A stretch of DNA of 64,000 nt from NCBI GenBank assembly GCA_951406725.2, contig OX597822.1:97650001-97714000 (forward strand), read 5' to 3'. The notes under the pieces were generated by a model that was not told the origin of the DNA, did not search any database, and worked only from the letters and a program-made list of their open reading frames with translations. This document shows positions 39,507 through 61,110 of this stretch, in pieces. The translations under genes and the position numbers were made by a program. Each line of letters starts with the position of its first letter. The stretch's first letter is position 1. The DNA is from Octopus vulgaris. Taxonomy: Eukaryota.

Positions 39507-39647
39507 GATTGCATTTGAGTGGTCCTTCAGGCCAGGCCATAGAAAATTCTGCTCCTCTCACATTGTACTGTTTACATGTAGAACAGAAAGGTCTTTGATT
39601 GCTGTTGCAACTCATGGTTTGACAATTGTCAATATAGTTTGAACATT
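39507..39647 (-). CDS. Constant exon 2 (Cys-rich, QCSNYIDNCQTMSC...LKCN)
   Basis: Acceptor tccctgtctctAG, donor C|GTGAGT; 141 nt; phase 1-1, compatible with all V exons. Confidence 0.85.
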
Positions 39648-40789
39648 CTAGAGACAGGGAAGTAAATATCATGGTAAATTAGAATAAGGGAAGTAAATAT
39701 CATGGTAAATTAGAATATATAGGGAGAGTTTACGAAAAAAACAAAAACAACAAAAGACGAAGACAGGTGGTGTACAAAACAAACAGATGTAATAGTATAA
39801 TGCTCAGGAATAGAAAAAGTATTTTACGTTTCGAGCCTACGCTCTTCTACAGAAAGGGACACAGAAAAAACAAGGAGAGAAAAAAATGTGTGTAGTGGCT
39901 GAGAGAGAGAGAGAGAGAGAGAGAGAGAGAGAGAGAGAGAGAGAGAGAGAGAGAATAATAAATTATTATGATGTTGATAATGATGACGATGACAATTTGT
40001 TGTTTGTTCCTTCTCGAGCCACGCCTGGCTCATAAGGGCTGGTTTCCCGGTTTCCTTGGCGTATAGGTTCCCCACCTGGACAGGACACCGGTCCGTCGCA
40101 GGTAAGCTACAAGAGGAAAGAGTGAGAGAAAGTTGTGGCGAAAGAGTCAGCAGAAGCTCGCCATTACCTCCTGCCGGAGTAACGTGAAGCTTAGGTGTTT
40201 CGCTCATAAACACACACATCGCCCGGTCTGAGATTCGAACCCCGCGATCCCTCGACCTCTAGTCCGCTGCTCTAACCACTAGGCCATGTGCCTCCGCACG
40301 ATGACAATTGATAACAATGAAGATAATAGCAATAATAAATCATGATGGTGATGATGGTGATGATGATGATGATGATGATGATGACGACGACGAAGTTGAT
40401 AACGATGATGACAATGAGAATGATCAAAATAGTAGTGATGGTGGTGGTGCTGATGATGATTATATCAAAGATGATAATGGCTATGACAATGATAAAAATG
40501 ACGATGGGGATGATGATGATTATGGAACTGACATGGTCATCATCCTGCAGAAATAAGACAACTTATACCGAAGTGACAGCACGCAGTATAGCGGAGCGAA
40601 TAGGAAAAAAAACTGGCGGAAGCTCAAAGAGGAGAAAAGCTTGTCAGTGTTCTACCAGCATGCTCAAGTAGAACATAGATGCTCGGTTATTAACATAGAG
40701 GTTAAGGTATTATCAACACATAGAACAAAAATGGCACTGTTCCAGTTCGAAAGGGATGCCTCGCAACTGTTTCATTTTCCGCAGAATTT

Positions 40790-41070
40790 GCTCTAGAGCC
40801 AACATTTACAGAAGAGGTGACAACAGGTAGCCTTGATAGACAGAGCATGTGTAGCAAAATGGTTCCGATAGGTGGCCATCTACTTTGACTCCCGAGCAGG
40901 TTCCGCTGTGCATTGAAGCAATCCAGCGATGGTCGACTCTTTTGAATGCTTTGCATTGACCCAAATTGATCAGTTTCCCACGGAAGCCGGCTTTGGTTCC
41001 AGCCCTCTCTATGATGTGTCGCATAAGGTGGAGTCTGTCGTGGATAGATCTGTTGTGTAACACAAGAAGC
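40790..41070 (-). mobile_element. L1/Tx1-like RT fragment
   Basis: RSIHDRLHLMR, LINLGQCKAFKRVDH, VDGHLSEPF, SVYQGYLLSPLL. Confidence 0.7.
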
Positions 41071-41074
41071 CAGT

Positions 41075-57756: not shown

Positions 57757-59334
57757 CCTTTATGAAATAAAGAATTTCTTTTGACCAAATTCGTCTGCAC
57801 AATTTAATTCTTTAAGTAATTACTTTGAAATCAAAAGTCATTCCTTGTTGACTTACTCTCTGCAATGGACAGAATGAAAAGTTTTTCGCAAACTGCTTAG
57901 AAATATGACAAGGAATGCAGTGAAAATTTTGTTGGTCAGGAAGTAACAGTTGCTTGAGCCACTAAAGCTCTTTTAATCCTAGATGACCAGTATAGTTTGG
58001 ACAATATCCTGATTAATAGTTCTTTAAAAGATATTTTGTTGTGTTTAGATTCAAGAAATTTATGTTATCAATGTTATCGACATTTCCTTGATTTATATTA
58101 CGTGTTATTGCTGTGGTTTTGGTTGAGTAGAGGGTAGAAATGGGTGAAGATGATGACGACGACAACGACGATAATGATGATGATGATGACAATAATAACG
58201 ACGATGATGATGTGAGAGTGTGGGTGGATGGATAGAGGGTGATGCATGGTTGGGTAAGGGGGTAAGGGGTAAGGTATAGACAGACGGCGCTGTAGAAGTG
58301 AATAGCGTTCACAATCTAGCTATTGGGTGGAAGGTAATGCAGTGAATGCATTTCAGGGTGATGTGGTGTACCCCCAGTACAAAGTGGCTGTTTGTTGGTT
58401 AGCCCATCAAGAAACTGAAATATCCTCAGTTCCAGTGGCAGCTAGTGGGTTAAACTATTAGCAGATTGGTGTACCTTCAGTACCAGTGGAAACTAGTGGG
58501 TTAACCCATCAATAGGCTAGAGTACCCTCAACATCATTAGCAGCTAGTGGGTTAACCTATCAACAAACTGAGGTATTATCAGTACATATGGCAGCTAGTG
58601 GATTTACCTATCAATAGACTGTGTTACCCTTAGTATCAGTGACAAATGAGGATTTCTCCTTCAATAGACTAGTTTACCCTATTTCTAGTGGCTTAACCCT
58701 GCAACAGACTGGTACATCATCAGTACCAGTGGTACCTTGTAAATGACATGGCTGTGTACTTGAGAAGCATATTTTCCCAATCATGTGACACTTTGGGCAA
58801 GTGTCTTCTATTATAACCGTAAGCTGACCAAAATTCTGTGAGTGAATTTGGTAGATGGAAACTAAAAACCCATCATGTATATATGTATATATATATATAT
58901 ATATATATATATATATATATATATATACTTTATTTAAAGCAGCAGAAGATTCAACAAATCCTGTTATTCATCATAGAACAAATACCACTATGAGTGATGT
59001 CCAGACTACAGTGGAGAAGGTGAGCCACTAGATTTGGTTAAAAAAGAGACTATGAGCAAGAAAGAATATTGAGTGAAACCTAATAACCGGTTGGTCTAGT
59101 AAGCAGAGCTTCATTTCAATGAGGGTGGGTGGTTTGCACAATGATGCCACCGAGAGGAAGGCCCCAAAATGGCACACATTCTCTCCTGATGACATCATAA
59201 ACTTGCCAGCATCTGGTATGCGGAACTTTCAACTGGTAGCCTTTGTACTTGCAAGTTGTTTGCAATATATATATATTGCATCTTCAAGTAGTCTGCAAAC
59301 AATATAAAAAAAATATATAACAGTAAGTACTCAC

Positions 59335-59632
59335 GATTTGGACAACAATATTGTGATGAGTGACATCCACTAGGATAACATGATTTTGATGTTCTGGTGT
59401 CTGTGATTCCACAGACTGGAGCACATTTCTGTAAGTTGTCTTTATGATGTGTGCATATGGCAGCTACTTGTCTTTTAGAGATATCTCCACATCTATGTCT
59501 GCAGGCAGACCATGGAGTTATGTTTTTGGCTAGGCATTTGTTTGGAGATTTTTTTTTATTCCAAAGCCACCATGTCTGCACTGGTTGGAAACAGTATAAA
59601 GCAATTATCATTAACCATAGAATGTTATGCAT
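59335..59632 (-). CDS. Variable first exon V1 (signal peptide + TSP1-like Cys-rich domain, 99 aa + 1 nt)
   Basis: ATG at 59632. Hydrophobic N-terminus MHNILWLMIIALYCFQPVQT, then C-x7-WSACRHRCG...CYPSGCHSSQYCCPN. Donor AAT C|GTGAGT at 59335/59334, phase 1 (298 nt). Confidence 0.85.
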
Positions 59633-60800
59633 CGTTTATGAAATAAAGAATTTCTTTTGACCAAATTCGTCTGCACAATTTAATTCTTTAAGTAATTACT
59701 TTGAAATCAAAAGTCATTCCTTGTTGACTTAACTGCTGCAATGGACAGAATGAAGAGTTTTTCACAAACTGCTTAGAAATATGACAAGGAATGCAGTGAA
59801 AATTTTGTTGGTCAGGAATTAACAGTTGCTTGAGCCACTAAAGCTCTTTTAATCATAGTGGACCAATATAGTTTGGACAATATCCAGATTAATAGATATT
59901 TAAAAGATATTTTGTTGTGTTTAGATTCAAGAAATTTATGTTATCAATGTTATCGACATTTCTTTGATTTATATTACTTGTTGTTATTGCTGTGGTGTTG
60001 GTTGAGTAGAGGGTAGAAATGGGTGAAGATGATGACAATGACAAAGACGATAATGATGATGATGATGATGACAATAATGACGACGATCATGACGATGATG
60101 ATGTGTGAGTGTGGGTGGATGGATGGAGGGTGATGCATGGGTGGGTAAGGGGGTAAGGGGTAAGGTATAGACAGACGGCGCTGTAGAAGTGAATGGCGAT
60201 CACAATCTAGCTATTGGGTGGAAGGTAATGCAGTGAATACATTTCAGGGTGATGTGGTGTACCCCAAGTACAAAGTGGCTGTTTGTTGGTTAGCCCATCA
60301 AGAAACTGGATTATCCTCAGTTCCAGTGGCAGCTAGTGGGTTAAACTATTAGCAGATTGGTATACCTTCAGTACCAGTGGAAACTAGTGGGTTAACCCAT
60401 CAATAGGCTAGAGTACCCTCAACACCATTAGCAGCTAGTGGGTTAACCTATCAACAAACTGAAGTATTATCAGTACATATGGCAGCTAGTGGATTTACCT
60501 ATCAATAGACTGTGTTACCCTTAGTATCAGTGACAAATGATGATTTCTCCTTCAATAGACTAGTTTACCCTATTACTAGTGGCTTAACCCTGCAACAGAC
60601 TGGTACATCATCAGTACCAGTGATACCTTGTAAATGACATGGCTGTGTACTTGAGAAGCATATTTTCCCAATCATGTGACACTTTGGGCAAGTGTCTTCT
60701 ATTATAACCGTAAGCTGACCAAAATTCTGTGAGTGAATTTGGTAGATGGAAACTAAAAACCCATTATGTATATATGTATATATATATATATATATATATA

Positions 60801-61110
60801 CTTTATTTAAAGCAGCAGAAAATTCAACAAAACCTGTTACTCTGAGTTTCACGTTGCCATTTGTCGGACAGTTTTTGCTAGAATAGTTTTGCTATTCTAG
60901 TAAAAACTGTCCGATGAACGGCAACTTGAAACTCAGAGTAACAGGTTTTGTTATTCTAGCAAAAAACTGTCCGACGAATGGCAACGTGAAACTCAGAGTA
61001 ACAGGTTTTGTTGAATTTTGTGCTGCTTTAAATAAAGCATATTACTCTACCACTGGTATTTGAGAATATCTTTTTTCCACCTTGTTTCACATCTATGTGT
61101 TTACTCCAGT
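60801..61110. repeat. Palindromic element with a partly duplicated right arm; related pieces at 3414-3532 and 14568-14650
   Basis: ctttatttaaagcagcagaaaattcaacaaaacctgttactctgagtttc... is mirrored by ...gaaactcagagtaacaggttttgttgaattttgtgctgctttaaataaag. Confidence 0.85.

Follow-up and report, generated by a model that had tools for sequence, protein, structure and literature searches.

Several genes are known in which one of a set of alternative first exons is joined to a common body of downstream exons. In the UGT1A, GCNT2 and clustered protocadherin genes, as described in the available part of one report (PMC1885805), the variable first exons share a splice phase, each encodes a signal peptide and a recognition part, some members are dead, and hypervariable residues are positively selected. 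The available parts of two papers on chelicerate sDscam (PMC4835542, PMC9258826) describe tandem 5' cassettes, each encoding a leader and an N-terminal domain, that are joined to common exons and whose promoters have been tested. In human genes, the available portion of PMC8373072 gives 39 N-terminal substitutions by tandem exon duplication, with alternative promoters producing homologous N-termini, and on that account the design can be considered established. Here we describe a locus of Octopus vulgaris that appears to be built in a comparable way, with an array of 5' exons in front of one constant region. It lies on the minus strand of a 64,000-nucleotide (nt) stretch of contig OX597822.1 (positions 97,650,001 to 97,714,000), called the window below, whose coordinates are used throughout. 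A literature search, with many subscription papers and supplements outside its reach, found no mollusc or cephalopod variable-first-exon locus and nothing on this protein family; the available parts of PMC6339937 and PMC7339444 contain no cephalopod variable/constant locus.

The array holds four intact paralogous exons, V1 (59335..59632), V2 (57492..57756), V3 (55652..55916) and V5 (48311..48611), exactly where the original prediction had placed them. Each starts with an ATG, continues as one open frame that opens with a 20-residue hydrophobic leader (judged from sequence and hydropathy), and ends in CCPN plus a C, after which comes a GTGAGT donor. All four donors are in phase 1 and have an identical context, and each exon encodes 8 to 10 cysteines (Cys). 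V1 (99 codons + 1 nt, 10 Cys) comprises the leader, a V5-like WWL...PNK segment and a thrombospondin-like (TSP1-like) tip. Both V2 and V3 (88 codons + 1 nt each) carry an in-frame 33-nt deletion relative to V1; V3 has 10 Cys, and V2 has 8, having lost two together. The two lost Cys are adjacent in the sequence and may have formed one disulfide. V5 (100 codons + 1 nt) is the conserved 5' coding exon nearest the constant region. A fifth element, V4 (55064..55127), had been described as a dead exon, but amounts to a 3' stub that keeps just the final 42-63 nt of a V exon, without ATG or leader; its donor is dead, ATAAGT, and is followed by the start of a V5-like intron.

V1, V2 and V3 each lie in a tandem unit of 1.84-1.88 kb. 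Unit 1 (58968..60842) is made up of upstream DNA with a 51-bp minisatellite, V1 itself, and ~370 nt of downstream DNA, mostly dispersed repeat; it is followed by unit 2 (57124..58967) and by unit 3 (55285..57123). About 1.1 kb of upstream DNA was copied along with each V exon, and V5 has ~750 nt in common with these units at 68-74% identity. As had been predicted, each V exon thus has its own duplicated upstream region: throughout the 2.8-Gb genome the V upstream DNA has four long matches, which all fall in the window, plus one 40-nt match on another contig, and four matches to V5, every one inside the window. The minisatellite, in degenerate form, precedes every V exon including V5 (49331-49535, 56522-56777, 58383-58638 and 60274-60529), and is possibly a regulatory repeat. 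Two self-complementary elements of 250-300 nt, resembling miniature inverted-repeat transposable elements, are present at 50619-50917 and 60796-61042, and the latter forms the upstream edge of the triplication.

The array faces a single constant region. Its first exon, E2 (39507..39647, phase 1-1, six Cys), is preceded by an AG acceptor and has one match genome-wide, itself. No copy of E2 lies between the V exons, in agreement with the original prediction, or in the 80 kb to the left and 60 kb to the right of the window. Joining any V exon to the modelled constant exons yields an open frame of 3,288-3,300 amino acids (aa). The part encoded in the window, 1,938 aa, corresponds to the predicted size of about 1,940 aa or more.

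We favour, with moderate confidence, a reading in which promoter choice swaps the TSP1-like recognition tip of one giant gene. Each V unit would bear its own start region, giving four starts to one gene. The V exon that is fired would be spliced from its phase-1 donor to E2, and V exons downstream of it would be skipped and left in the first intron. This reading is favoured because the donors and the terminal Cys are invariant, the tails behind the donors are not conserved, ~1.1 kb of upstream DNA was copied with each exon, and the acceptors within the leaders are poor. The product would be a secreted rod of 3.3 thousand aa (kaa), with FN3/Ig-like domains, a Cys-rich neck and a TSP1-like tip at its end, and its likeliest purpose would be to bind a changing outside partner, such as the surface of a microbe, parasite or gamete.

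The sequences of the tips bear on whether V1 to V3 are in use. V1, V2 and V3 are young duplicates, whose non-coding flanks differ from one another by 2.7-3.1% (~1,460 nt). Within a hypervariable coding segment (59377..59477 in V1 coordinates), however, there are 19, 21 and 26 differences per 100 nt between units, compared with 0-9 in non-coding windows. For the mature tips, the proportion of differing nonsynonymous sites (pN) is 0.186-0.217 (Fisher p 5e-13 to 2e-16 against the flank rate) and that of synonymous sites (pS) is 0.079-0.121. A single-ratio codon model made for this analysis gives an omega of 3.0 for V1/V2/V3 over 68 codons (p 0.017) and 3.2 over 88 codons (p 0.011), whereas V1 versus V5 gives 0.33 (79 codons, p 0.006), which corresponds to purifying selection. 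V5 itself is conservative, sharing 85-86 of its 100 residues with proteins P0003-P0005. V1 and V3 retain all ten Cys, every indel within the V exons preserves the frame, and the donor has been lost in the V4 stub. In a neutral simulation at 0.10-0.15 substitutions per site, the frame, ATG, donor and all 10 Cys survived together in 0.07-1% of runs. Taken together, the selection tests, the neutral null and the retained Cys and frame argue that V1-V3 form a coding lineage under selection, and the codon comparisons show a signature of diversifying pressure on it. Conversion from V5 was considered as a source of the tip diversity and rejected; few V2 or V3 letters match V5. On the favoured reading, V5 would be the old, conserved tip. 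A copy of its unit would have arisen long ago (25-30% flank divergence) and been triplicated recently, and a loop in the middle of the V1-V3 tips would be diversifying under positive selection and differ between individuals.

Tips of these types also occur in other public samples. Among 24 runs listed for positions 55600-59750, four (X1-X4) contain part of that stretch; none of the 24 is recorded as RNA, and they have no bearing on expression. The contigs of the four were compared with the V1 stretch 58935-59960 at 80% likeness, and their letters were then compared with V2, V3 and V5. The stretch contains V1 alone, so a V-to-E2 joint could not appear. X2 to X4 come from two studies; the runs carry three organism labels, their kind is not on record, and contig depth was not taken as copy number. 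Of the two tip contigs in X2, the first differs from V1 at 5 letters and is of V1 type, the second differs at 20 and is of V3 type. In X4, a 918-nt contig spanning start, tip and donor has V2-type letters, and X3 has a 1,482-nt contig that matches V5 at all letters listed, plus a V2-type donor end. X1 gave one 164-nt contig (depth 5.2), which extends from 48 nt ahead of the ATG over a 5' end of V2/V3 type and leaves the donor uncovered; its RNA nature is a guess and it may be DNA, so it is not used as evidence of transcription. The mature tip starts with CMITG in V2 and X4, CMIIG in V3, CTITE in X2 and X3, and CIITE in X1, and all of these differences change the amino acid. X2 joins a V1-type middle to a V2/V3-type start, which hints at shuffling. 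The 33-nt extra segment of V1 is covered in none of the four runs, a gap that carries no weight. The tip types are therefore real, further variants occur beside them, and they vary between samples, although the copy number per animal does not follow from these data.

It has to be asked, then, whether V5 alone could be in use, V1 to V3 being decaying or silent copies, or haplotypes duplicated by error. V2 does lack two Cys, and the pair of tip contigs in X2 might represent two alleles of a single locus; moreover, V1 to V3 are mutually so young that little decay would be expected. Nevertheless, three distinct tips exceed the two alleles of a diploid locus, each tip type is found in another sample, and each unit has private indels and microsatellite lengths. 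Omega departs from 1 in both directions, and the frame, donor and Cys persist at a distance from V5 at which they would usually have been broken. We therefore regard this explanation as very improbable. The original prediction had named two outcomes that would overturn it. One, that the triplication is an assembly artefact, is countered by the presence of V1-, V2-, V3- and V5-type tips in public runs, and the part of the other that has V1-V3 silent is largely answered by the selection and by those same tips.

The variable-first-exon/constant-exon locus proposed in the original prediction is partly supported, in that it fits the four phase-matched exons, the one constant region and the open 3.3-kaa frames. 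What the prediction left out is two sequence features that support rival explanations: acceptor-like sites behind the V1-V3 donors, and a motif resembling an acceptor plus a donor ~100-125 nt before the ATGs. These are among several points that weigh against promoter choice with splicing to E2. Splicing of V1-V3 to E2 and the separate start sites are read from the DNA only. When scored on a matrix built from the gene's own acceptors, the acceptor of E2 is modest: of the 1,148 AGs in the DNA that separates E2 from the V1 donor, 18 equal or outscore it. Thus, the claim that the sole matching phase-1 acceptor lies at 39647 holds in that this is the only homology-supported acceptor exon, but not for the acceptor sites as such. 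Of the five best acceptor-like AGs, three lie close behind the donors of V1, V2 and V3, at 41-42 nt, and use of the conserved AG at 103-126 nt ahead of the ATGs as an acceptor could turn the V exons into internal ones. The number of Cys in each V exon is even, so that each might fold alone. As for the selection, pN > pS is not significant in pairwise comparisons alone (p 0.055-0.14); the tip pS of 8-12% exceeds the divergence of the flanks, which means that part of the signal may come from gene conversion or old alleles; and the codon model ignores recombination.

The acceptor-like sites behind the donors (59292..59308, 42 nt behind that of V1, with copies at 57450, 41 nt behind V2, and 55609, 42 nt behind V3) are either decoys or the starts of a short terminal exon. 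In the second case, V5 could be the sole first exon of the giant gene, and V1 to V3 could have become small genes of their own, whose products are secreted, short and rich in Cys and evolve fast like antimicrobial or venom peptides. Their transcripts would end in a nearby intron or repeat, after read-through, or after a splice to the acceptor-like site that follows the donor of the next unit. From these sites, phase-1 frames reach a stop after 32-59 aa, and the donors of V1 and V2 are followed, at a distance of 400 nt, by an AATAAA, although this hexamer is expected by chance in DNA so AT-rich. The even Cys counts would suit such peptides, and positive selection on tandem, short, secreted domains is typical of them. 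However, an intron of 41-42 nt would be far under the gene's shortest, 636 nt. Decoys are also common in the gene's real introns: as a control, 11 of its 20 introns were found to hold decoys that score at or above the true acceptor, and thus the sites behind V1-V3 weaken the case for E2 splicing less than they otherwise would. The read-through tails (46, 16, 46 and 28 aa in V1, V2, V3 and V5) are not conserved: the tail is frameshifted in V2, and it bears no likeness to that of V5. By contrast, the donors and the terminal CCPN are invariant, its last two Cys being unchanged in all four exons even beside changed neighbours. The pattern of Cys-rich repeats weakly suggests that this CC would need partners in E2. 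On balance, short peptides are an unlikely explanation of V1 to V3.

The second feature, an AG followed by 3 nt and GTAAGT, is found before each ATG, at 56010-56030 (V3), 57850-57870 (V2), 48728-48748 (V5) and 59726-59746 (V1, where the donor is broken). Its AG lies at -103 in V1-V3 and at -126 in V5, so that the V3 motif stands 103/100 nt before the ATG, and it falls within the best-conserved upstream window, 28 of 30 nt being identical between V5 and V3. As an acceptor, this AG scores 2.3-4.5 (rank 13-30 of 1,148), within the range of true acceptors, and it is kept in all four units. It could therefore mark V exons that are internal and mutually exclusive, spliced in the manner of Dscam1 behind a shared non-coding first exon farther upstream. 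The four copies descend from one ancestor, though, and count as about one observation; no candidate for the shared exon was identified, and the duplication of each exon took in ~1.1 kb of upstream DNA. In V3 and V5, moreover, the GTAAGT 3 nt behind the AG scores better (as a donor, rank 10 of 1,198) and would spoil the acceptor. We consider internal V exons quite unlikely. Since promoter choice and internal exons would yield identical products, that the same giant isoforms are made in one of these two ways is rather probable. It is also unlikely that V exons are chained to one another by way of the phase-1 AGs within their leaders, and this route was rejected; such cryptic acceptors score -0.5 and -3.2, under every true acceptor (0.5-10.4).

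Returning to promoter choice as the preferred reading, the motif also invites a more speculative, and doubtful, proposal. The AG-3 nt-GTAAGT might steer the spliceosome past each downstream cassette; V1, the one copy in which its donor is broken, is the cassette farthest upstream. The locus would then be a giant secreted scaffold with young cassettes that vary by copy and by allele, an arms-race recognition system in the making, whether in immunity, allorecognition or the gamete.

The TSP1-like character of the tip is only a lead. It comes from a WSACxHRCG...R motif, from the Atlas (0.89), and from a profile match to a TSP1-repeat protein (E 3e-6). Pfam gives TSP1 (PF00090 / PF19028) 13 bits against a cut-off of 41 (E 0.12), and for V3 alone. 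The AlphaFold model of V5 is unusable (pLDDT 40), and a profile search of the PDB gave one match, at chance level (E 0.69). Against 1.84 billion representatives, the V profile has two matches, P0007 and P0003, the latter an orthologue of V5 whose sequence was read on into the intron. A V1 search at near length matched one of one candidate, while none of 359 proteins of 176-2,000 aa matched the V alignment; the organism's own full-length 3.3-kaa protein was outside the reach of these searches, and an annotated isoform set may exist.

The constant region was modelled with P0006 (XP_067684122.1), an uncharacterised protein of 3,388 aa from Haliotis asinina, as a guide. The model has 20 constant exons, all bounded by AG and GT, 11 in the window and nine to the left of window base 1 (loci L007-L010), with the stop ~33.4 kb before that base. 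After E2 come E3 (37876..38001), which has six Cys in what we take to be an EGF-like spacing and matches P0006 residues 185-216; E4 (30429..30683, phase 1-1); and E5 (23819..23963, 1-2), the best-scoring phase-fitting candidate, which lies in non-repeat DNA. E5 took the place of a candidate at 26017-25905 that was rejected as a repeat read from its opposite strand, a copy of which (96%) is present on contig C26. A fragment of a long interspersed nuclear element (LINE) lies on the plus strand at 25055-26017, and its antisense mimics a good exon. E6 (21715..22388, 2-1) matches P0006 residues 348-549 and is followed by E7 (18075..18541, 1-0), E8 (15028..16222, 0-1), which has a weak fn3 match, E9 (10275..11665, 1-0), E10 (6066..6753, 0-1), E11 (4869..4985, 1-1) and E12 (1789..2102, 1-0). 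Among the exons to the left, a donor near -13804 led to an in-frame stop, and -13840 was used instead.

Mobile-element sequences are found within and beside the gene. The V5-E2 intron contains, on the plus strand at 41187-44179, a broken pol of a long-terminal-repeat retrotransposon, in which protease, reverse transcriptase, RNase H and integrase-like frames can be made out by eye. A LINE-type reverse-transcriptase frame of 614 aa lies in the E3-E4 intron (34571-36920, minus strand), and 162 nt of this frame are found again at 54739-54900 (97.5%). About 60.5-65.7 kb to the left of window base 1, also on the minus strand, locus L013 has frames of 693, 437 and 723 aa that by eye resemble Helitron Rep/helicase.

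The model is collinear with P0006 over residues 90-3,294 at ~26% identity, in three blocks (E 1e-107, 2e-123 and 6e-24). P0006 has Pfam matches to fn3 and Ig-like domains, as well as one to FN3_DSCAM that is below its cut-off; the window exons have weak fn3 and Ig-like matches, and their Atlas neighbours are hypothetical proteins, mostly of molluscs. This full-length similarity places the gene, as judged by alignment, in an uncharacterised family of giant mollusc FN3/Ig-like proteins. In the hydropathy profile of the 3.3-kaa model, no 19-residue window exceeds the leader (1.38). No membrane anchor is therefore predicted, and the product is presumably secreted. Since no cadherin or Ig-set Pfam match was found among 12 exon frames, and there is no membrane-spanning window, the octopus protein is neither a protocadherin nor a Dscam. 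A distant member of the same family, with large exons, is present on the minus strand of contig C26 (38573800-38586200, L024-L025). No V-like exon was found in the 160 kb around it; its 5' end was not located.

How, then, does the octopus locus compare with the systems described above? The closest in sequence are the Haliotis proteins P0006 and P0001 (XP_046543946.1, Haliotis rubra), which have the same size, a leader, no clear membrane anchor and a collinear constant region (~26%); their first 90 residues, however, do not align with the octopus tips. In design, as far as the available parts of the papers cited at the outset describe them, the sDscam genes resemble it in encoding an invertebrate extracellular Ig/FN3 protein with tandem 5' cassettes. 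Yet sDscam encodes a membrane receptor and its cassettes run into the tens, whereas the octopus gene has four, a TSP1-like tip, and a 3.3-kaa body with no predicted anchor. No sequence kinship between the two has been shown, and the promoters tested in sDscam are here inferred. With UGT1A, GCNT2 and the protocadherins the locus would share same-phase variable first exons that encode a leader and a recognition part, as well as dead members and hypervariable residues under positive selection. In those genes, the variable part is half or most of the protein, compared with 3% in octopus, and the arrays are old and conserved across vertebrates, whereas the V1-V3 flanks are ~3% apart and the tips vary between samples. 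If V1-V3 join E2, the locus would be a promoter-choice cassette array in a mollusc, on a secreted rather than a membrane protein, at a very early stage. It would then afford a rare view of how such an array originates, with flanks ~3% apart against 19-22% at amino-acid-changing sites of the tip, and would suggest that the members of a large protein family without an assigned function do their work at the N-terminal tip. Thus, the octopus locus is probably a new case of the known variable-first-exon design, made distinctive by the youth, positive selection and sample-to-sample variation of its tips on a giant secreted protein.

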